From NCBI GenBank assembly GCA_964483825.1, contig CAZADD010000005.1, positions 1 through 32,323 of the forward strand: 32,323 nt of DNA. The letters are read 5' to 3'. The DNA is from an uncultured Oscillospiraceae bacterium. GTDB lineage: Bacteria > Bacillota > Clostridia > Christensenellales > CAG-314. The notes under the pieces are model-generated. The model was not told where the DNA came from. It did not search any database and saw only the letters and a program-made list of their open reading frames with translations. This document shows, piece by piece, positions 1,566 to 13,960 of the stretch. How positions within the stretch are numbered: the stretch's first letter is position 1; each line of letters begins with the position of its first letter. The translations under genes were made by a program, and so were the position numbers.

Positions 1566-1670
1566 GTTTTTGCGGCAACGGCTTTCCCTACCGTTCAACT
1601 TGAACAAAAATTCACTACAACACAAAACGGAGCCAAAAAACGGCTCCGTTTTTTTGAATGGTTGATGAAT
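1566..1670. repeat. 105-bp direct repeat, copy 1 (contains a rho-independent terminator); second copy at 3186-3290
   Basis: Near-identical sequence TTTTTGCGGCAACGGCTTTC..ACCGTTCAACTTGAACAAAAATTCACTACAACACAAAACGGAGC..AAAAAACGGCTCCGTTTTTTTGAATGGTTGATGAAT at both sites; flanks diverge immediately outside. Confidence 0.85.
1625..1657 (+). terminator. rho-independent terminator of oxidoreductase gene
   Basis: Stem AAACGGAGCC / GGCTCCGTTT with A-rich loop, followed by T7 run. Confidence 0.75.
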
Positions 1671-2021
1671 TATGATTTGAGGCACACGCAAACAAAACAG
1701 TTGTTGTTTGCAAAACACGAAAACCGTGTCATTGATAGGAACAAAACCACCTCGCATCACATGGCTGTTTGAAAAATGCGGCTAAACAGGCCGCCAAACT
1801 CCAGTTTAATACTGTTGCCAACAGCGTGAAAATGGTTTTTTACGGCGAGCGGTCACCGTTGATACTGTCGCCGCAAAAAACCAAGTCGCCAATAATATGC
1901 GCGTGATGATTCGGAATGAGCACGCCCCTAGAATACATCCAACTTATCCTTGACAGCGACTTGAAAGGAACACCAAGAGCCCCAAGTCACCACCCTAACG
2001 GATGGCGGCTTAGGTTCCTTT

Positions 2022-2915
2022 TTAGTCTTGCAAAATTTTTAGATATTTATCCAATCTCGCATTGATATATTCCGCAAAGAGTTTTTCCATAGCGGACAAA
2101 TTGTGCTTTGCATGGTATTCGTCAAACGCATTGTAGTAAGCCAAGCGATCCGTGAACTTAATGTCAATGGGCGGAAATCCGGCTTTCATAAGTTCCAAAT
2201 TAACAAGCAATCGGCCCGTTCTTCCGTTACCGTCAATGAATGGATGAATACCTTCAAATTCAATGTGAAAACGGGCCAATTTTGTTACAACGTGTTCTTT
2301 GCTTTCGGCAAAGTCGCGCAAAAGCTGCTCTATCTTTTCTTGAATGAGATACGGCTCGGTCGGCTCGTGCTGTGCGCCCATGATGCGAACGGGAACTTTG
2401 CGGTATACGCCTCGATCGTCCTTCTTGTCCGCAAGAACAAGATAGTGAATTTCTTTGATTACACGCTCGCTGATGGGCACGTTGTTTACCACAAGCTCTC
2501 GAACATATTCAAACGCCTCTTTGTGGCCCACCGCTTCCATGTGATCTTTCAGTGGTTTGCGGTCGACGGTTAGCCCCCTGAGAACCAAATCGGTTTCACG
2601 CAAGGTCAGCGTGTTGCCCTCAATGGCGTTGGAATTGTAGGTGTATTCAACGGCAAATTCTTCGTTCAAGCGTTCCGCTTCCCCCTCGGTCAGCGGTCTG
2701 CGACTGTCAAGTTCCGCCTTTTTTTTGTCTATTTGTGCAAGAATGCTCTCTTGAGATTTGTACCTTCCGTCCGACGGTTTTTCCGCATCGGCAGGAATTT
2801 TCCACCCGCGCCCCTCTTGAAACGCTCCCGAAATTTTACCCTCGGCACAAAGCACGCGAACTCTCCTTTCGGAAACGCCCCACTTTTCCGCAGCTCTTTT
2901 AACAGTCATGAACAT
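2022..2915 (-). CDS. Fic/Doc family protein (AMPylator-type) with N-terminal HTH and intramolecular inhibitory helix motif
   Basis: 297 aa. Canonical Fic motif HPFIDGNGRTGR. Upstream SNAIEGN matches the (S/T)xxxE(G/N) inhibitory motif. N-terminal MTVKRAAEKWGVSERRVRVLCAEGKISGA resembles an excisionase/MerR-like HTH. Confidence 0.9.
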   Translation of the reverse strand: MFMTVKRAAEKWGVSERRVRVLCAEGKISGAFQEGRGWKIPADAEKPSDGRYKSQESILAQIDKKKAELDSRRPLTEGEAERLNEEFAVEYTYNSNAIEGNTLTLRETDLVLRGLTVDRKPLKDHMEAVGHKEAFEYVRELVVNNVPISERVIKEIHYLVLADKKDDRGVYRKVPVRIMGAQHEPTEPYLIQEKIEQLLRDFAESKEHVVTKLARFHIEFEGIHPFIDGNGRTGRLLVNLELMKAGFPPIDIKFTDRLAYYNAFDEYHAKHNLSAMEKLFAEYINARLDKYLKILQD

Positions 2916-2973
2916 GCTCGTTATTCCTCCCGTTCGTGTTTATTATACCACACTTTCGGAACAATATCAATAG

Positions 2974-3009
2974 TAGCGGAATAATATTTTGCAAATTAGC
3001 GGAATAATA
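2974..3009 (-). promoter_or_regulatory. two 13-bp direct repeats TAGCGGAATAATA (about 23 bp centre to centre) upstream of fic; candidate operator in promoter region
   Basis: Exact 13-mer repeated at ~2974-2986 and ~2997-3009, 60-95 bp upstream of the fic start codon (2915). The Fic protein carries its own HTH. Confidence 0.35.
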
Positions 3010-3185
3010 GCTCTTGTTGGAGTATCTTTCCGTCGGGTACGGATATAAAAAACCGTGCAACGTACAAGCCAAGAACGTTGCGCTTTTTGTGCGTGCAAAC
3101 GACATCTTTTTCATGCTTGAAGTACAAAGCAATAGTTTTACAAGTATCTTGCCGCTTGTTTTCCGCTAGACGAACAGTTTTTTTC

Positions 3186-3290
3186 TTTTTGCGGCAACGG
3201 CTTTCGGCACCGTTCAACTTGAACAAAAATTCACTACAACACAAAACGGAGCAGAAAAAACGGCTCCGTTTTTTTGAATGGTTGATGAAT
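3186..3290. repeat. 105-bp direct repeat, copy 2 (with terminator hairpin ~3245-3278)
   Basis: About 95% identical to 1566-1670; together they bracket the fic gene. Confidence 0.85.
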
Positions 3291-3421: not shown

Positions 3422-4006
3422 GTGTTTTGGGAAAATTTGTCGCTTCTTGCGAAAATTTTGTTTTGCACCGGCATTGGCTCCACCGCCATTTTGCTGATAC
3501 AGATAATTTTGATGATAATCGGCTTTGCCGGCGATGCTTTCGGCGACGTTGACGTAGACATCGATGCCGACGGCGACGTGGATTTGGACGGTGCCGGCGA
3601 CGGAATAGGTTTGTTCACCATAAAAGGCCTTGTTGCATTCTTTTCCATAGGCAGTTGGACGGGTTTTGCAATGGACGTTTCCGGTTGCAACGAAGTGCTT
3701 TCCGTTTGCATTGCCGTGCTTGTGGGGGCGGCCGCACTTGTGGGCGTAGGCTTTTTGTACAAAGCGTTGAACAAGTTGCAATCCAACGGCAATTTGAACA
3801 TGGCCAACGCCATCGGAAAAACCGCCGAAGTGTATCTCACCGTTCCTGCAAACAATTCCGGCACAGGCAAAGTAACGCTGGAAGTTCAGGAAAAGTTTGT
3901 GGAAGCAACGGCTCGCACCACCGCCGAAAACGCCATTCCAACGGGATCGATAGTTAAAGTTGTGGATACCGTTAACGGCGAACTGATAGTAGAATTAAGT
4001 AAATAA
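3422..4006 (+). CDS. NfeD-like membrane protein (YuaF/YqiJ type, C-terminal OB-fold), flotillin partner
   Basis: 194 aa. N-terminal TM helices, acidic DVDVDIDADGDVDLDGAGDG stretch, C-terminal beta-rich domain. GTG start with GGAGG RBS. Immediately upstream of the flotillin gene with a 15-bp gap. Confidence 0.8.
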   Translation: MFWENLSLLAKILFCTGIGSTAILLIQIILMIIGFAGDAFGDVDVDIDADGDVDLDGAGDGIGLFTIKGLVAFFSIGSWTGFAMDVSGCNEVLSVCIAVLVGAAALVGVGFLYKALNKLQSNGNLNMANAIGKTAEVYLTVPANNSGTGKVTLEVQEKFVEATARTTAENAIPTGSIVKVVDTVNGELIVELSK

Positions 4007-4021
4007 CAGGAGGTAACAACT

Positions 4022-5458
4022 ATGCTCAACATTTTTGCAACCATCACCAGCGGAGCGATAGCCGGCATTGTAGTGGCGGCCGTTCTCGTTTTAACGTCGA
4101 TATTTTTGATGTTCCTTTCTCGCTACAAAAAGTGCCCGTCGGATAAAATAATGGTTATCTACGGCAAAATCGGCAAAAACAGCGACGGTACGTCTCGCAG
4201 CGCAAAATGTATTCACGGCGGCGCCGCATTTATCGTGCCGGTTATTCAAGCGCACGCATTTTTGGATTTGACCCCCATTTCCATCAGCGTGGACCTTCGC
4301 AACGCCCTTTCCAAACAAAACATTCGTGTTGACGTTCCGTCCCGATTCACCGTTGGTATTTCCACCGAACCGGGCATCATGCAAAACGCCGCCGAACGCC
4401 TTTTGGGGCTTTCGTTGAACGAAATTCAAGAGTTGGCAAAAGATATAATTTTGGGCCAATTGCGTTTGGTTATTGCAACGATGGAAATTGAAGAAATCAA
4501 CAACGACAGAGACAAATTTTTGGAAGCCGTTTCTCGCAACGTGGAAACGGAATTGAAAAAGATTGGTTTGCGCCTTATCAACGTTAACGTAACGGATATC
4601 AGCGACGAAAGCGGCTACATCAGCGCACTTGGTAAAGAAGCGGCAGCAAAAGCTATCAACGCTGCAAAAATTTCCGTTGCCGAAGCGGACAAAGAAGGTT
4701 CTATCGGTGCCGCAAACGCATTGAGAGAGCAAAGAATAATGGTTTCGCAAGCGGAAGCGGAAGCCATTAAGGGCGAAAACGACGCAAAGGCGGAAATTGC
4801 AACTGCGCAAGCAACGTTGAGAGAAAAGGAAGCCGAAGCAACCAAAATTGCCACCGTTGCGGAAAAGACCAAGAGTGCGGAAGCGTTGGAAGAATCCTAC
4901 TCGGCGGAAAAACTTGCCGAACAAGCCCGTGCCGCCCGTGACCAAGCAACTTTGGAAGCCGACGTAATTGTCAAAACGGATATTGAAAAACGCCGCAGAG
5001 AAATAGATGCCGAAGCCGAAGCGGAACAAATTCGCCGCAGAGCACAAGGTGAAGCGGACGCAATCTACGCAAAACTGGAAGCACAAGCACGCGGCGTGAA
5101 AGCGTTGTTGGATAACCAAGCGCAAGGTTATGCGGAAATTGTTAAGGCTGCCGGCGGCGACGCAAACGCTGCAATGCGCTTGATGATAACGGACAAAATG
5201 GAAAGCCTTGTCAAAACGCAAGTTGAAGCAATCAAAAACATCAAAATTGACAAAATCACCGTGTGGGATTCCGGCAAGGGCGAAGACGGCAAAACATCCA
5301 CTGCAAACTTTTTATCCGGACTTTTGCAAAGCTTGCCCCCGATGACGGACCTTTTCGACATGGCCGGCTTGCAACTTCCCGAAGTTTTGAACGCGCAAAA
5401 GAAAGTTGAAGAACCCCCTAAAACAGAAGACAACACAGAAATCAAAACAGAAGAATAG
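4022..5458 (+). CDS. floT: flotillin-family SPFH domain protein (FloT/YuaG-like)
   Basis: 478 aa. N-terminal TM segment, SPFH core, long Ala/Glu-rich coiled-coil (EA repeats) typical of flotillins. GGAGG RBS. Operon with NfeD as in B. subtilis yuaF-floT. Confidence 0.88.
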   Translation: MLNIFATITSGAIAGIVVAAVLVLTSIFLMFLSRYKKCPSDKIMVIYGKIGKNSDGTSRSAKCIHGGAAFIVPVIQAHAFLDLTPISISVDLRNALSKQNIRVDVPSRFTVGISTEPGIMQNAAERLLGLSLNEIQELAKDIILGQLRLVIATMEIEEINNDRDKFLEAVSRNVETELKKIGLRLINVNVTDISDESGYISALGKEAAAKAINAAKISVAEADKEGSIGAANALREQRIMVSQAEAEAIKGENDAKAEIATAQATLREKEAEATKIATVAEKTKSAEALEESYSAEKLAEQARAARDQATLEADVIVKTDIEKRRREIDAEAEAEQIRRRAQGEADAIYAKLEAQARGVKALLDNQAQGYAEIVKAAGGDANAAMRLMITDKMESLVKTQVEAIKNIKIDKITVWDSGKGEDGKTSTANFLSGLLQSLPPMTDLFDMAGLQLPEVLNAQKKVEEPPKTEDNTEIKTEE

Positions 5459-5478
5459 TTTTTGACAAAACGCATGAA

Positions 5479-5514
5479 ACACCGTCGCCACAACGTGACG
5501 GTGTTTTTGTTTTG
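5479..5514 (+). terminator. rho-independent terminator after floT
   Basis: Stem ACACCGTC / GACGGTGT followed by TTTTTGTTTT. Confidence 0.7.
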
Positions 5515-5595
5515 CCGAAGACTATGTTGCCACAAAAAAACAACAAAATTTGATTTTGGCAAAAAACAAAACGAATTTTTCAAAGTTCAAAACAA

Positions 5596-5996
5596 CAAAA
5601 CCCCGTCGCTGTATGAGTGTTACCCTTAACGGAGAACACGCAATGAATTGCAATCGTGTTGCATGAATTGACAGCGAGTGTCATGAATTGCAGTAAACTG
5701 CATGAATTGCCCTGTGGGCATTATATTCGTTGCAATTCAATTCATGGAGTAGGCGAAGAGCCGTCGAGAAATCATGGCGAAGCCAATTCATTATGCGTCA
5801 GCATAAATTCATCCATAAAAATGAAAAGAGCAAGAATAGAATGTTTTAATCATTGCACTCTTGCTCTTTTTGCTTGTAAATATGGGTTTGGGCTTGGCTC
5901 AATAAAGCATTCGACTAGTTAAATGCGATGCTCGCACTTAGTAAGACTTTTCAATCTCTCCGCTAAGAATATCACGCTGTAGTGCGACGGGGTTTT
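5596..5996. repeat. ~400-bp element bounded by 17-bp perfect inverted repeats (CAACAAAACCCCGTCGC / GCGACGGGGTTTTGTTG) with an internal CATGAATTG array; MITE-like or regulatory module
   Basis: Inverted repeats at ~5596-5612 and ~5978-5996. Four direct copies of (T/G)CATGAATTG at ~5641-5708 spaced ~20 bp, then inverted copies CAATTCATG / CAATTCATT at ~5735-5795. Internal hairpin plus T-run at ~5823-5870. Confidence 0.35.
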
Positions 5997-6015
5997 GTTG
6001 TGCAATTTTTTGTAG

Positions 6016-6999
6016 CTACTTTAACAGTTGTTTTCTCTTTTCGTCAAACTCTTCCTGCGTGATGATTCCTTCATCCAACAAGCTTTTGTATTTCTTTAAT
6101 TCGTCCGCTGCTGAAAGTGTTTGCGTTACAACTGTGGTTCCGTTTTGAGGATGAGATGCGTTTTCGCGTGCATTTTCCAAGAAGTCAACAATTTCTCTCA
6201 TTTCGGATATTCTTTCGAGATAATACGGCACAGAGTTTTCGTCATTGACTGCCGAACCGGAAGTTCCACGTGCTTCTACGCTGCCTGCATAGGAAAATTG
6301 AACGAATCCAACAACGCTGCGAGTTGCTTCCTTGTGTTGAATGGATGTTATGTCGGCTATTCTGATTCTTTTCACCCCGTTGTTGCCACCTTCCATTTGT
6401 TTAAAAACGAAGTCAACAACGCCGGACGTGAATCTTACGTGCGACAAGGTGATGTATTTATCGTATACTGCTAATTCCGAGCCGGTATACCCTATAAAAT
6501 AATATTTAGGAACCGGTTCGTTTTGACACTCAAAAATCTTTTTGTTTGCGTATTCCAGCGCCCTACAAAAACGCACGTTGTCGGCATATTTGAAATAAAT
6601 TCCATACTTGCGTCCGGCGGCAGTAAAAGTGGCATAACCACCCTTTCCGACTAGGGAAATGGCACCGCTAATAACGTTAATTTTGCTACATTGTTCATAG
6701 GGTAATTCCGTTTGACCAACGATTATCGAAGTTTCTGTTATTGAAAAGTTGTTTTCGCCGCTAATAAACGGATCAAAGATGGTGCGGCTTTCCAAGGGCT
6801 TTTCTTCAACTTCATTTTGCTCGATGCCCGCTTTACTTGGAGTGCCTTGAGGTTCTTTCGCTGCAGCAACAATATCCACAATCCAACCGACGCCAAATAC
6901 CCCGAACGTTAACAAATAAAGTATGCCCAAAGCATATTGCTTTTTATGAAAGCGGTAGTAGCCAGTCCAACCAAAGAACACGGTCAATAGTAGTGTCAT
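6016..6999 (-). CDS. membrane protein with N-terminal TM2 domain and C-terminal SHOCT domain
   Basis: 327 aa. N-terminus LLTVFFGWTGYYRFHKKQYALGILYLLTFGVFGVGWIVD (TM2-like). C-terminus ELKKYKSLLDEGIITQEEFDEKRKQLL (SHOCT-like). AAGGAG RBS. Confidence 0.8.
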   Translation of the reverse strand: MTLLLTVFFGWTGYYRFHKKQYALGILYLLTFGVFGVGWIVDIVAAAKEPQGTPSKAGIEQNEVEEKPLESRTIFDPFISGENNFSITETSIIVGQTELPYEQCSKINVISGAISLVGKGGYATFTAAGRKYGIYFKYADNVRFCRALEYANKKIFECQNEPVPKYYFIGYTGSELAVYDKYITLSHVRFTSGVVDFVFKQMEGGNNGVKRIRIADITSIQHKEATRSVVGFVQFSYAGSVEARGTSGSAVNDENSVPYYLERISEMREIVDFLENARENASHPQNGTTVVTQTLSAADELKKYKSLLDEGIITQEEFDEKRKQLLK

Positions 7000-7089
7000 T
7001 TGTTTAATCTCCTTTGTTTTTTACTAATTATATCACAAAATGAGATACATGTCAATATCTCAAAAAGAGATATTTATAATAAAAATACT

Positions 7090-7305
7090 ATGAGATTGAA
7101 AGAAATTCGTGAAGACAAACAATTGTCGCAAAGTGAAGTCGCAAAGTTGTTGAACGTAAAGCAAAACACCTATTCGCAATACGAAACGGAAAAAAGACAA
7201 ATCCCCATTGCAATGCTTGTGCAACTTGCCGAGTTCTATGCCGTGTCGGTAGATTATCTTTTGGAACTCACCGACGTAGAAGATAGGTATCCCGCACGCT
7301 ACTGA
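7090..7305 (+). CDS. XRE-family helix-turn-helix transcriptional regulator (71 aa)
   Basis: MRLKEIREDKQLSQSEVAKLLNVKQNTYSQYE is a classic XRE HTH. The internal ATG at 7090 was chosen because the longer ORF from 7000 would overlap the divergent gene. TATAAT lies 9 nt upstream of the ATG (possibly leaderless). Confidence 0.75.
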   Translation: MRLKEIREDKQLSQSEVAKLLNVKQNTYSQYETEKRQIPIAMLVQLAEFYAVSVDYLLELTDVEDRYPARY

Positions 7306-7535
7306 AATTTTTCAAAGTGTTTTGTGCAAAAGCTTATTGGCAAACCACAAAGCTTTATCATGCCGAAAATTATTGCAAAAAAAACGCCCTCTGCGAATGA
7401 ATTTTGAAGGGTCGCCTTGTTTTGCTTAGTGCGTGTAGAGCGGAATAATTGCTTGAAATTTTGCCAAACTACCAAACGAAATAACCCTTCGTGAACTGCC
7501 AATGGGAAAACACTTCCGTTACAAAACAAAACACA

Positions 7536-7576
7536 CAAAAAGTCCGTTGCACTAACGCAACGGACTTTTTGTTTTG
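7536..7576. terminator. bidirectional rho-independent terminator between convergent XRE and gltS genes
   Basis: 10-bp stem AGTCCGTTGC / GCAACGGACT, A-run before, T-run after. Confidence 0.75.
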
Positions 7577-7601
7577 CATGTCACCATGTATTTACATGTA
7601 G

Positions 7602-8975
7602 TTACTTTTCCAATTTGTTTTTCTTTTTGAAAATTTTGCTGCGGAACAGTATCAGTACAAAAACAATGAACGCCACAGCCAAAATTGCAAGGGTTATTAT
7701 CGATTCCGTCACACCACGCGGGCAGTAGCCCAGTAGCAACAGTAATCCGCCGCCGAATGCAATGGCAGGCACTCCGGAAAGAACAAGGTTGGATGCCGCA
7801 GGCGTTTCGAAGCGAGGGTCTATTTCCCTTAGCAAAATCATGCCGTTGCTTGCAGTGCCCGTTAACATGCCGAACATGGAAAAGAATCCTTCGTTTTCGT
7901 AGCCCGGGTAGATAACGTTACTAACCAAACGAATATAAATGAATGTTGCAACGGTGCCCAGCGTGCAAATAATGGCAATTTGCCACCACATTTGCGAAAG
8001 TTGTTGCCAATCGATGGCGGCCACGCCGGCAATTATCATGGTATCGAACATCAAACCGCTTATTCTATCCAACATGTAACTGTTGGTAAGTTCACGGTGG
8101 ATAAGTTTCTTTTTGGAAAGGAAATTCAGCACCAAGCGGCACAACAGTGCAAAAATAGAACCAAGCAGGAAGTTAAATCCCCACACCAAACTGACGTTGA
8201 CAAGCTTCATCACCAAGTACACCAAACCGTAGATAACCAGCACCAAGCAAGTGCTAATCGTCACTTTATCCACCGATTCGGCATCGGGAATTTCGTTTTC
8301 GCTAACGTACTTTTCCAAAGTTTCCACGTCTTGCGCTTCTTCTTTGGTCAAAACCTTTAATTTGCCCTTTTTGCGCAAAATGTTCATGTACACCACGCCC
8401 ACCACGCAAGCAACGAAGAACCCTATCGTGGCAATGGTGATGCCGAACGTGGCACCGCCTTCAAAGCCGTATTCGTTTTCGTAGATATTGCCGTAGTTAA
8501 GCGCCTGTCCGGTACCTTGCCCAAAGCCAAGCGCAAGCAAAATGCCGCCTGCCGGGAAAAAGTCGCAAACAAAGTAGAGAATTATTGTCACCGCCAAACC
8601 CAATATTGCTTGCAACGTGTAAACACTTCCTTGTAACAAGCCCGATTCTATCACCGTTTTTGTGGAAACGGTTTCCTTTTTTCTTTTGCGCAACGCCATT
8701 GCAATGAACCCTATTGCCAAGCAATGGTAGGTTAGCGTTTCCATCAGTTCCGCATTGATAAAATCGTTCACGGCAGGTATCAATTTCAAAAGCAAAACTA
8801 TCGTTCCGCCTATCAGCGCCGAAGGTATCAAACTTTTGCGCATAAACGGCACTTTGCGGCGAATAATGTTGCCCACAAGCACGGCCGCCGCCAAAATGAA
8901 CACTTGAATTAAGCTTGACCAAACCTCATCTGCGCCGAACGATTTAACCGTTGACATTATCGATTGACAAAGCAT
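7602..8975 (-). CDS. gltS: sodium/glutamate symporter, GltS family
   Basis: Multi-TM protein. N-terminal pattern (LIQVFILAAAVLVGNIIRRKVPFMRKSLIPSALIGG) resembles the GltS family. Start moved to the ATG at 8975 (MLCQSIM), which has an AAAGGAGGGG RBS 7 nt upstream. Confidence 0.7.
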   Translation of the reverse strand: MLCQSIMSTVKSFGADEVWSSLIQVFILAAAVLVGNIIRRKVPFMRKSLIPSALIGGTIVLLLKLIPAVNDFINAELMETLTYHCLAIGFIAMALRKRKKETVSTKTVIESGLLQGSVYTLQAILGLAVTIILYFVCDFFPAGGILLALGFGQGTGQALNYGNIYENEYGFEGGATFGITIATIGFFVACVVGVVYMNILRKKGKLKVLTKEEAQDVETLEKYVSENEIPDAESVDKVTISTCLVLVIYGLVYLVMKLVNVSLVWGFNFLLGSIFALLCRLVLNFLSKKKLIHRELTNSYMLDRISGLMFDTMIIAGVAAIDWQQLSQMWWQIAIICTLGTVATFIYIRLVSNVIYPGYENEGFFSMFGMLTGTASNGMILLREIDPRFETPAASNLVLSGVPAIAFGGGLLLLLGYCPRGVTESIITLAILAVAFIVFVLILFRSKIFKKKNKLEK

Positions 8976-10152
8976 AAAATACGTCCCCTCCTTTTGCGGC
9001 AATTTGTTCGCACAGCACGTTGAAAAACAAAACGTACTTCACGGGATTGAATTTTTTGTTGCCTATAACTGCAAACGACTTGCCGTCGGCGTTTACAATC
9101 AGTTTTCGTCCGCCCACGCATGTGGCACTGGTGACGGAGTTCAGCGAAATTTCCGTCGTTGCAAAATGCAACGCTTTGTCATCCAAAAACATGTCGCCGC
9201 TTTGCAACAAAACGTGTTGCATGGTGCTTTGATCCCACAATTCCATGTCGGAATCTTTCAATATCACTTGGCTTGGCTCTATTTTGCTGTTGCGAACAAC
9301 TTCAAGTTGCATTTTGTACCAATCCACAAGTTTGAACGATGTTTCACTGCCATCGTGATGCAAGTGCAAGTCTTCGCCGTATTCCGCCTCGAATCCGCAT
9401 TCGGAACAGGTAATTTTTGCGCCCTTGGAATGCAACGTGGAAAAGGCTCCGCATTTCGGGCACACGAATAACAGCCGTTCCAAGTCTTCCGCACGCTTTG
9501 GGGAACGGTACTTTTGCCCCGAATCGGAATCGATAACTTTCAAGTTATCCACAACTTCGCGATACAAACTTTCGTCGTCCATTGCGGCAATTTCTTGCCA
9601 AGAAAGCACTTTTTTCACTTCGCCGTGGCTTTTGCCCTTGCGAACAACGCTTGACCAACGCGGATTCACGCCGTAGAGCCCATGCAGGTTGTACAAAACG
9701 ACGGGCATTTTCAGCATACGAATCATTTTGCAAATGGATTTGTCAATGTGGAACTGAAAATCGCACCAACAGCGATTTGCTTCGGGAAACATGCAAATAC
9801 TTCCGCCCTCTTTGGCAATTTGCCGCATTGTGCGCACACAGTTGATATCCGCTTCGCTTTTTCGCTTTTTGATGGGCGCAAGGGTGTAACGCAACAATTT
9901 TGAATACCACTTGTCGGTAAAAACTGTATCAGAAGTTACAAAATAGACGGGCATTTTGAAGCTTAACGCCAACAAAACGGGGTCCAAAACGCCTTGGTGG
10001 TTAGATAAAATAAGGTACTGATCGCCCTTTTTCAGTTTCATTTTCTTTGCCTTGAAGTGGTACTTCCACGCTATCACGTGAGCAATGGGGCGCACCGCCG
10101 CAAAGAAAAATTTGTGCCTACGTTTAACGTAGGCATTTTTGTTGTTTTTCAA
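8944..10152 (-). CDS. lysophospholipid (1-acyl-sn-glycerol-3-phosphate) acyltransferase family protein with C-terminal extension
   Basis: 402 aa. Acyltransferase motif I SNHQGVLD (NHxxxxD) and FPEAN motif. Overlaps the gltS start by ~30 bp. Confidence 0.75.
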   Translation of the reverse strand: MKNNKNAYVKRRHKFFFAAVRPIAHVIAWKYHFKAKKMKLKKGDQYLILSNHQGVLDPVLLALSFKMPVYFVTSDTVFTDKWYSKLLRYTLAPIKKRKSEADINCVRTMRQIAKEGGSICMFPEANRCWCDFQFHIDKSICKMIRMLKMPVVLYNLHGLYGVNPRWSSVVRKGKSHGEVKKVLSWQEIAAMDDESLYREVVDNLKVIDSDSGQKYRSPKRAEDLERLLFVCPKCGAFSTLHSKGAKITCSECGFEAEYGEDLHLHHDGSETSFKLVDWYKMQLEVVRNSKIEPSQVILKDSDMELWDQSTMQHVLLQSGDMFLDDKALHFATTEISLNSVTSATCVGGRKLIVNADGKSFAVIGNKKFNPVKYVLFFNVLCEQIAAKGGDVFYALSIDNVNG

Positions 10153-10451
10153 AATTATTCTCCGAACAAAAACACTAAACTTTTGTTAAATTATCGTATG
10201 TATTTCTTAAACACAGCTGAAAACACCACCGCAACCGTGTCGCCATGCCGGTGACGATTGCCACATGTCATCACACAAAAACTTGCACGGTTTTTGAGAT
10301 GCGAAAGAATAGCAAAAATTTATTTTGTGCGCACAACTTTCACTAACTAAACTGCAACTTTTATTTCTTCGACAGCACCGCCGTGGCTGAAAGAAATTTG
10401 CGACTTTGAAGCGGCAAAATTTGACGACGTTGTTACAATCCCCAAAACAAC

Positions 10452-13539: not shown

Positions 13540-13960
13540 GAAAAAATATTTTGCACACAAATTTCTTTCTAACCCACCAACAAGGTAGTGTTAATAAAAC
13601 GGAATATTGCAATATGTTGTGGTTCACAAAGGCTCCCCTAACGTGCCTCAACTCTTCACTCGGCTGCACAGCAGCCACTTGGCTCCTTTGTGTAAAGAGA
13701 GCTGGAAGCGACTTCGTCGCAGTTAAAAGATAAGAGAGAAAAGAGAAAAGAAAAGGATACATTTTTTGAAATCTGAATAGTTGTTTTTGACAAATAGACT
13801 AGAAAAAATAGTTTTTTTCGTCAATTTTTACTAAAGGCACCATTTTTTGCTATTCACTATTACTTTTTCATTCGGTTACGTCAATACCCCTCTCAGTCAC
13901 CTGCGGTGCCAGCTCTCCCCAAGGGGCGAGCCAAGTGAGATAATTGCCCAATTGTGAAGC
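13540..13960. repeat. mosaic intergenic repeat cluster (family shared with 21540-21780, 22700-22900 and 26380-27180)
   Basis: Contains AAAAATATTTTGCACACAAATTT, CGACTTCGTCGC(C)AGTTAAAAGATAAGAGAGAAAAGAGAAAAGAAA, TTTTTGACAAATAGACTAG...TCGTCAATTTTTACTAAAG and CCCTCTCAGTCACCTGCGGTGCCAGCTCTCCCCAAGGGGCGAGCCAAG modules, all recurring elsewhere in the window. Confidence 0.8.

Follow-up and report, generated by a model that had tools for sequence, protein, structure and literature searches.

A Gut-1-like hairpin array in a probable mobile element within a terminator loop of an uncultured Oscillospiraceae bacterium

Structured miniature inverted-repeat transposable elements (MITEs) such as Correia/NEMIS, ERIC, RUP and BOX are small, non-coding and intergenic, fold when transcribed, can carry promoters or terminators and vary between strains. 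The intervening sequences (IVSs) of 23S rRNA occupy the loops of hairpins within a structured RNA. Insertion sequences (ISs) of five families (IS3, IS110, IS4, IS256 and IS5) target repetitive extragenic palindromic (REP) sequences, and IS1397 and ISKpn1 (IS3 family) and IS621 and ISPpu9 (IS110) insert into palindromes (PMC1525189). Among structured RNAs, the Gut-1 motif (RF01706), reported in 2010 on the basis of 43 human-gut sequences, was presented as a likely non-coding RNA and given neither a function nor a context (PMC2864571). Here we analyze a 32-kb stretch of the genome of an uncultured Oscillospiraceae bacterium (contig CAZADD010000005.1, 32,323 nucleotides; hereafter the window), one of the Clostridia and of a type represented among gut and rumen metagenome-assembled genomes, in which a non-coding element of ~365 bp lies between the convergent genes floT and TM2-SHOCT. 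It is probably a non-autonomous mobile element that carries a Gut-1-like structured RNA module and has inserted in the loop of a terminator between the two genes.

As with Correia/NEMIS, ERIC, RUP and BOX, the window element is small, non-coding, intergenic, foldable and strain-variable, but its core is a covarying multi-hairpin array that is also found outside any MITE, in a gene leader and in phage operons, and we know of no cognate IS for it. It resembles the palindrome-targeting ISs in that its target is an extragenic hairpin, and differs from them in lacking a transposase gene and in its target, which is not a REP sequence but an intrinsic terminator. The array is tied to PF05635, the protein family of the 23S rRNA IVSs and of Avd in diversity-generating retroelements, although a PF05635 gene, a reverse transcriptase and an rRNA context are all lacking for the window copy; a mechanistic link between the array and these systems is speculative. 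Four direct repeats with a period of ~20 bp, followed by inverted copies, recall the iteron arrays of plasmid and phage origins, whereas here conservation is confined to 8-9 nt of each 20-nt unit, the remainder being a variable hairpin, and the array is flanked by floT and TM2-SHOCT with no initiator gene. With Gut-1 it has in common tandem short hairpins, a conserved UGAA-containing linker (CAaUGAAAU-hp-GUGAAAU-hp-... in Gut-1, where hp is a hairpin) and an occurrence in gut metagenomes and Clostridia-type genomes. It differs in the UGAAUUG linkers of the window copy, in a bipartite unit made of a D half and a complementary I half with an invariant 26-nt stretch, where the Rfam model spans the D half alone, and in that the unit can sit in a mobile element bounded by terminal inverted repeats (TIRs) and is linked to PF05635 genes. 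The bipartite unit, the mobile-element setting and the PF05635 link are absent from the description of Gut-1 (PMC2864571). A structured intergenic repeat, a MITE-like insertion and a Gut-1-type motif are each of an already-known kind. To our knowledge, Gut-1 has been without a context since 2010, and the linker variant, the bipartite architecture, the insertion in a terminator loop and the link to PF05635 are unreported.

A split host terminator and the ends of the element

An initial annotation, made from the letters alone, had placed a MITE-like element with 17-bp perfect TIRs at this locus. A perfect inverted repeat is indeed present; it is 18 nt long, with ACAACAAAACCCCGTCGC at 5592-5609 and its exact complement at 5984-6001, 374 nt apart, and the chance expectation for such inverted matches (up to three mismatches) in the window is ~0.14. 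What the repeat is can be read from L081 (L-numbers denote comparison contigs and loci), a Logan contig found through the TM2-SHOCT protein, of which it encodes a 98%-identical relative, and which has 97% nucleotide identity to the window on both flanks of the feature. There the arms are adjacent, ACAACAAAACCCCGTCGC-TGTAGT-GCGACGGGGTTTTGTTGT, and form a hairpin with the 6-nt loop TGTAGT that has a free energy of -33/-34 kcal/mol on either strand and is flanked by an A-tract and, opposite it, a T-tract. Such a structure, immediately after the stop codon of TM2-SHOCT, is an ordinary bidirectional intrinsic terminator. In the window its left half (A-tract and GC-rich ascending arm, 5592-5609, the former 'left TIR') is separated from its right half (descending arm and T-tract, 5984-6001), which, read on the minus strand, lies 15 nt past the TM2-SHOCT stop. 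Since the arms are left as one hairpin at the empty site, the supposed TIRs are the host target and not the ends of the element.

The 368 bp between the arms are missing from L081. The filled site of the window reads GTCGC-TGTA-(insert)-TGTA-GT-GCGAC and the empty site GTCGC-TGTAGT-GCGAC, with one copy of TGTA in L081 and two in the window (5610-5613 and 5978-5981); the placement of the ends of the element decides whether the duplication counts as GTA (3 bp) or as TGTA (4 bp). The simplest reading of this comparison is an insertion of the 368 bp into the 6-nt terminator loop. It is preferred because the alternative, a deletion, would need to regenerate the perfect 18-bp hairpin and its 6-nt loop while taking out just one of the two TGTA copies, and because none of the 80 other floT loci carries the sequence. 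The converse, in which the element is ancestral, L081 is a precise deletion and the long inverted repeat and array are a local regulatory structure of floT or TM2-SHOCT, would agree with there being a single comparator contig and with an 18-bp helix that closes the whole region in minimum-free-energy (MFE) folds, but we regard it as very unlikely, given also that homologous elements lie in unrelated loci with different flanks. Conserved presence at the locus in relatives, which the initial annotation had named as a sign of such a local structure, is not seen: L081 and the 80 related floT loci lack the element, BLASTN of the element against those 80 loci giving no match, as did BLASTN against phage and plasmid collections. 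The region folds much better than its shuffles on both strands (z = -7.6 and -8.9), and the MFE folds of both strands keep the 18-bp arm helix closing the whole insert. A large non-coding RNA closed by this helix as its P1 was nevertheless dropped, as the empty site shows that 'P1' is the host terminator.

The same comparison bears on two readings that take the 18-nt repeats as functional ends. One is the anatomy of the initial annotation, with the 17-bp perfect repeats as TIRs and CATGAATTG copies as subterminal repeats, together forming transposase-binding ends. The perfect inverted repeat, the small size and the lack of an open reading frame (ORF) all agree with it, but it is extremely improbable: both 'TIRs' persist at the empty site as a single hairpin, the other copies of the element are not flanked by ACAACAAAACCCCGTCGC, and the array occurs without any TIR in many loci. 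What stands of the MITE-like proposal is a small, non-coding insert that is present in one and absent from another of two close relatives, with GTA/TGTA flanks. The other is an inverton, that is, an invertible promoter or terminator switch bounded by the 18-bp repeats. Short inverted repeats with a few hundred bp between them are the geometry of known invertons, but this reading is hardly tenable when the repeats of L081 abut with nothing between them, no recombinase is found among the flanking genes scanned against Pfam, and the segment is found in one orientation only. For annotation in general, the locus is a caution that long, perfect inverted repeats on both sides of a structured insert can turn out to be a split host terminator, a trap for programs that call MITEs or invertons.

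The true ends of the element would be imperfect 22-bp inverted repeats with a 3-4-bp duplication, the perfect 18-nt repeats being the stem of a split terminator. The element (long form, 5614-5978, plus strand) starts with an imperfect TIR at 5614-5635, TGAGTGTTACCCTTAACGGAGA, and its left end (5614-5640, plus strand) is at the same time the hairpin H0 (GAGTGTT..AACACGC, -7.5 kcal/mol). The right imperfect TIR (5957-5978, minus strand), reverse-complemented as AGCGTGATATTCTTAGCGGAGA, agrees with the left end at 16 of 22 positions, and both ends are of the TGCGTGTTATCCTTAACGGAGA type, with the form TGNGTG...CACNC-N. With the 22-bp ends the duplication is GTA, and with ends one base shorter it becomes TGTA. 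Homologues of the element are found in L097, L126, L132, L133 and L140, in unrelated contexts with different flanks. The left limit of homology coincides with the left junction of the window in L097, L132 and L140, which keep the left end; (T/A)GCGTGTTATCCTTAACGGAGAACACGC is common to the copies, and H0 has compensatory variants in L126 and L057. An alignment of right ends is possible for the window, L133 and L126 (...TCTCCGCTAAGAAYATCACSC). The left flanks of the copies often end in NNTA (TGTA, GCTA, TGTA and ATTA), which is compatible with a tetranucleotide preference.

Between these ends the element carries the array (described below), a bidirectional terminator-like hairpin at 5823-5870 and a right-hand body (5871-5956, plus strand; GGGTTTGGGCTT..CATTCGACTAGTTAAATGCGATGCTCGCACTTAGTA..) common to L132, L133 and L126. 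The hairpin, which had been noted before, has T-runs on both strands and a folding energy of -18.8 kcal/mol on the plus strand and -20.7 kcal/mol on the minus strand, and is kept, with stem changes, in L097, L126, L132, L133 and L140. The family as a whole has two forms, a long one (left hairpin end, array, bidirectional terminator, right body of ~110 bp and right end) and a short one, which is the array alone. The absence of coding capacity was borne out, the sole sizeable ORF (5656-5922, 88 aa) having no Pfam match and no homologue; a protein-database query with this spurious ORF, seeking more copies, gave no match. Rfam at gathering and relaxed thresholds and ARAGORN found no known RNA, tRNA or transfer-messenger RNA in the window.

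Several observations weigh against a mobile element of this kind. There is a single pair of filled and empty sites, and the right TIR is recognizable in only two or three copies (the window and L133, weakly L126), being degenerate in L132 and absent in L097. The flanking duplication, which the initial annotation had proposed to look for, is found in the window copy alone and in neither L126 nor L132, where an apparent 4-bp TTCG duplication in L132 was rejected after alignment of the right end. Neither the viral scans nor the 1.18 Mb of fetched comparison loci yielded an autonomous or transposase-bearing copy with these ends; in the viral scans for the long form, the left-end word led to L097 only and the right-body word to nothing. 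No second copy was found in the 32-kb window, the part of the host genome to which the copy count applies, and no promoter is evident for the window copy. Finally, the flank geometry of L124 differs, with two whole inverted hairpins. In that locus (3493-3776, the same in L125) an array lies between two inverted copies of a groEL terminator hairpin whose loops are flipped (ATTTCA versus TGAAAT), a geometry that simple loop insertion does not explain.

If the element is mobile, it would move by cut-and-paste or copy-in through a DDE-type transposase that acts in trans and prefers palindrome loops, a preference known from some of the ISs that target REP sequences. IS1397 reportedly inserts in the loops of palindromic units, duplicating 3-4 bp, and the ends of IS3-family elements start with TG; a family assignment of the mobilizing enzyme from such IS comparisons would be purely inferential. 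Inverted-repeat ends and a hairpin at the left end only set the element apart from palindrome-associated transposable elements derived from IS200/IS605, which lack TIRs, have directly oriented subterminal hairpins at either end and insert 3' of a fixed tetranucleotide with no duplication. The insertion would be near-neutral for the flanking genes, with its own bidirectional terminator and a host stem that could still close, and the TM2-SHOCT transcript would enter the element for ~190 nt, in antisense, before it meets the internal hairpin. By entering a terminator loop and supplying a bidirectional terminator of their own, such elements may be able to spread with little harm to neighboring genes.

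The hairpin array and its relation to Gut-1

The core module of the element is a Gut-1-like hairpin array at 5641-5814 on the plus strand, where the covariance model R1, built solely from ATGAATTG-type arrays, scores 149.8 bits compared with 42.6 bits on the minus strand. Its relatives were gathered by pattern scans of IMG/VR phage contigs and of rumen- and gut-type metagenome contigs, and the core family is found in rumen and gut Clostridia and their phages. The D half (5642-5709, plus strand) has four (C/A)ATGAATTG linkers at 5642, 5662, 5682 and 5701, separated by the hairpins H1 (5649-5663), H2 (5669-5683) and H3 (5689-5702) and followed by H4 (5708-5720), with the stems TGCAA/TTGCA, TGACA/TGTCA, TGCAG/CTGCA and TGCCC/GGGCA. 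Four direct CATGAATTG copies about 20 bp apart had been reported from the initial reading, and they are there, the first (AATGAATTG at 5642) with one mismatch and those at 5662, 5682 and 5701 exact, at spacings of 20/20/19. In the I half (5733-5812, plus strand), CAATTCA(A/T) linkers at 5733, 5738, 5784 and 5805 are complementary to those of the D half. Where three inverted copies had been reported, four are found, one of them exact (5738-5746) and the others CAATTCAA (5733-5740), CAATTCATT (5784-5792) and AAATTCAT (5805-5812). The linker AUUCA here stands between the hairpins hpA (5752-5762), hpB (5775-5785, TGGCGAAGCCA) and hpC (5791-5806), including two GCGAAGC-type mini-hairpins, and the second half of the array has an invariant stretch, GAGAAATCATGGCGMAGCCAATTCAT, which in the window is the 26-nt GAGAAATCATGGCGAAGCCAATTCAT at 5766-5791. 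Window-wide, the 9-mer CATGAATTG is not above chance (11 copies with up to one mismatch, 10.6 expected); 6 of the 11 lie within 150 bp, and the same array recurs in unrelated contigs. The loops of single array hairpins have taken up a 26-nt module, GGTCGCGCGAGAAACGCGCGTGCTCC, twice in L134 (505-721) and once in L137 (8956-9140).

Rather than subterminal repeats of a transposon, as had been proposed, CATGAATTG and CAATTCATG are conserved linkers between the short hairpins of a covarying module, which also occurs without TIRs in phage operons and PF05635 leaders. Each spacer of ~11 nt is a small hairpin that takes its closing U-A and G-C pairs from the words on either side (...CA-UGAAU-UG...). 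On a structure-guided alignment of 17 copies, 93.3% of cells are paired and 18 of 33 pairs are changed on both sides; the covariation score is 0.387, compared with 0.150 for shuffles, none of 500 of which attains it, and 0.02-0.085 with slid partners. An 11-bp long-range helix of TGAATTGCRNC with GNYGCAATTCA is 95% paired, has two covarying columns and competes with H1, so the fold of the array may switch or may stack into multi-way junctions.

The structure is biased toward one strand. In the subfamily of the window, R1 scores 140-163 bits on the top strand and 35-67 bits on the bottom strand, G.T outnumbers A.C on the top strand by 32 to 13, and CATG to CGTG changes (U-A to U.G) are common on one strand. 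This bias favors a single-stranded structure of the top strand, to which RNA and single-stranded DNA (ssDNA) fit alike. It is tempered by a G.T excess that is modest without one conserved pair (21 versus 13), by short phage arrays that score near-equally on both strands under R1, and by the co-variation of D and I words between subfamilies, which a DNA-binding protein would explain equally. Most likely, the module would act as an RNA made from the plus strand of the window, its cargo being a 5' hairpin, four short UG...CA-closed hairpins joined by (CA)UGAAU(UG), three hairpins with AUUCA linkers and a bidirectional terminator.

RF01706 itself, with an Rfam gathering threshold of 50 bits, has no match in window 5400-6100 either at that threshold or at E<=10. 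The connection to Gut-1 runs through other Oscillospiraceae arrays. The D halves of the arrays in L032 are Rfam Gut-1, at 73 and 70 bits, while their I halves give a weak RF01706 match on the opposite strand, and R1 in turn matches both L032 Gut-1 loci at 57 bits (E ~5e-11). R1 also matches arrays with other linker words: (A/G)TGAAAT with ATTTCAT in L032, GTGAAGT with ACTTCAC in L012, and ATGAAGTA with TACTTCAT in the outer array of L090. The window array has the Gut-1 architecture of at least three tandem hairpins separated by linkers, with UGAAU(UG) in place of UGAAAU, and its type of hairpin has the covariation support that characterizes Gut-1. As it goes undetected by RF01706, the window array is, from these sequence comparisons, a sister variant of Gut-1 and not a member. 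Gut-1 here gains a bipartite architecture, several linker-word subfamilies, an occurrence in phage late operons, one mobile form and a strict, oriented association with PF05635.

Arrays ahead of PF05635 genes and in other settings

A PF05635 gene directly follows the array in L137, L138 and L012. PF05635 is the '23S rRNA intervening sequence protein' family of Avd-like four-helix bundles; the closest solved relative of an array-linked member is 2RLD, an uncharacterized protein. The PF05635 protein of L137 has more than 7,700 matches, mostly on contigs under 2 kb, as expected if a repeated gene and leader break assemblies. From three clusters of PF05635 proteins, in three different gene neighborhoods, loci were picked without regard to the upstream DNA, and R1 matched in 30 of 30, on the coding strand with the exception of L162, which holds only a 31-nt array trace on the opposite strand. 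The arrays are full length in 26 loci (84-148 bits) and cut by the contig end in three. Full-length arrays end 3-100 nt ahead of the PF05635 start codon, and promoter-like motifs (TTGnnn-16/17-TATAAT or TATACT) stand just upstream of the array in L155, L137 and L134. Given this leading position and the promoter-like motifs, the array is, as judged from gene order and motifs, the 5' leader of PF05635 genes in these loci. No split-hairpin flanks were found around the array-PF05635 units, and an integron-like cassette reading of L012 and L137 was set aside as no integrase was seen. Two further observations concern these loci: past its PF05635 gene, L137 has a second array (8431-8592), in which about eight I copies accompany a single D copy, and a small divergent ORF (MPWDNSVNK..., 74 aa, no Pfam match) abuts the array in two unrelated loci, L143 (1021-1245) and L141, in the latter on the upstream side of the array.

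Arrays are also found in other settings. In the phage contig L087 they lie within one late operon, between a small-terminase-like gene and terL, between terL and the portal gene and between a scaffold-like gene and the capsid gene, and L115 and L116 show much the same context. A tRNA gene with its terminator precedes arrays in L012 and L032. On the minus strand of L090 (2240-2720), a ATGAATTG-type array, together with ~200 bp, separates the D half of a second array (four ATGAAGTA copies) from its I half (four TACTTCAT copies) and is nested precisely at their border; this looks like insertion at the apex of another array, again a palindrome apex.

These settings bear on what the array binds or does. 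The iteron-type array that had been offered as an alternative to a MITE belongs to a broader class in which CATGAATTG is a duplex-DNA site repeated every two helical turns, direct then inverted, for an iteron, centromere, operator or recombinase arm-type protein, with the mobile element as a mere carrier. A period of 19-20 bp, four direct followed by about four inverted copies, D and I words that stay reverse complements in each subfamily (ATGAAAT/ATTTCAT, GTGAAGT/ACTTCAC and ATGAAGTA/TACTTCAT) and the strand symmetry of phage arrays would all follow from it. We nevertheless consider duplex binding unlikely: it needs neither the hairpin potential kept by the spacers nor closing pairs taken from the motif, substitutions of the U.G type (CATG to CGTG) are often seen on one strand, the orientation to PF05635 genes is fixed and downstream of promoter-like motifs, arrays lie inside phage late operons, and in the window no initiator, partition or recombinase gene is adjacent. 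The iteron form of the proposal is disfavored on the same grounds, namely the hairpin potential of the spacers, the fixed orientation to downstream genes and the lack of an initiator gene nearby.

The array could instead be read as folded ssDNA, for example as an attC- or sso-like recombination or priming site or an HUH substrate, with insertion in hairpin loops by an ssDNA pathway. Strand-biased hairpins, many of them triloops, two GCGAAGC-type mini-hairpins, targets at palindrome apices (the terminator loop of the window and the array center of L090) and the subterminal hairpin at the left end speak for this reading, which is still improbable in our judgment: the ends are inverted and have no matching right-end hairpin, unlike those of IS200/IS605-type elements, no HUH or integron-type integrase is present in the contexts examined in detail, and a leader position with promoter-like motifs fits RNA better.

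For an array that acts as RNA, the PF05635 protein would be the best candidate binder of the repeated linker-hairpin units, because the array is the fixed-orientation 5' leader of PF05635 genes. The association makes binding a testable hypothesis for a very abundant family of small proteins. A bolder proposal, and on balance an unlikely one, is that the linker-hairpin array and the PF05635 protein form an unrecognized RNA-protein system, in which each protein would bind the UGAAUUG-hairpin units in the leader of its own gene, and array-gene cassettes and gene-less arrays would spread into hairpin apices (terminator loops, other arrays and, by analogy, rRNA helices). If true, it would tie together three orphans: the Gut-1 motif, the 23S rRNA IVSs and stand-alone Avd-like proteins.

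Neighboring genes and other variable segments of the window

The convergent setting given by the initial annotation was confirmed, with floT at 4022-5458 on the plus strand and the TM2-SHOCT gene at 6016-6999 on the minus strand. An intrinsic terminator of floT lies outside the element (5476-5507, plus strand). Exact-protein look-ups for the TM2-SHOCT, FloT and upstream ORF products of the window found no record, and that for the helix-turn-helix (HTH) protein returned L081 and nothing else.

Window 5414-7602 is absent from L001, the closest genome locus (FloT 94% identical); it holds the element, TM2-SHOCT and a divergent gene for a 71-aa XRE-type HTH protein (7090-7305). The adjoining 7602-10223, with a Glt symporter gene and an acyltransferase gene, is inverted relative to L001. 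A connection of the 18-nt repeat to this 2.6-kb inversion was considered and dropped, as the inversion endpoints (7602 and 10223) lie elsewhere. A 1.5-kb segment with a Fic/DOC and HTH_17 gene (2022-2915) within window 1567-3274 is missing from the 97%-identical L081; it is bounded by 89-bp direct repeats (1567-1655 and 3186-3274, 87% identical) that include a terminator hairpin, and is a second strain-specific insertion beside a terminator.

Elsewhere in the window, multi-copy intergenic repeat families occur in both orientations at 13650-13920, 21530-21780, 22600-22790 and 26400-27130, among them blocks of purine-rich AAAAGATAAGAGAGAAAAGAGAAAAG, hairpins of GCGACTTCGTCGC and blocks of CCCTCTCAGTCACCTGCGGTGCCAGCTCTCCC. 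L009 (8200-8320) has comparable purine- and pyrimidine-rich blocks in the interval from a tRNA gene to a PF05635 gene. Two long direct repeats complete the picture, one at 18950-19171 and 21243-21464 (222 nt, 89% identity), near the 3' ends of two ORFs, and one at 23977-24121 and 24499-24643 (145 nt, 91%), with hairpin-like inverted repeats.

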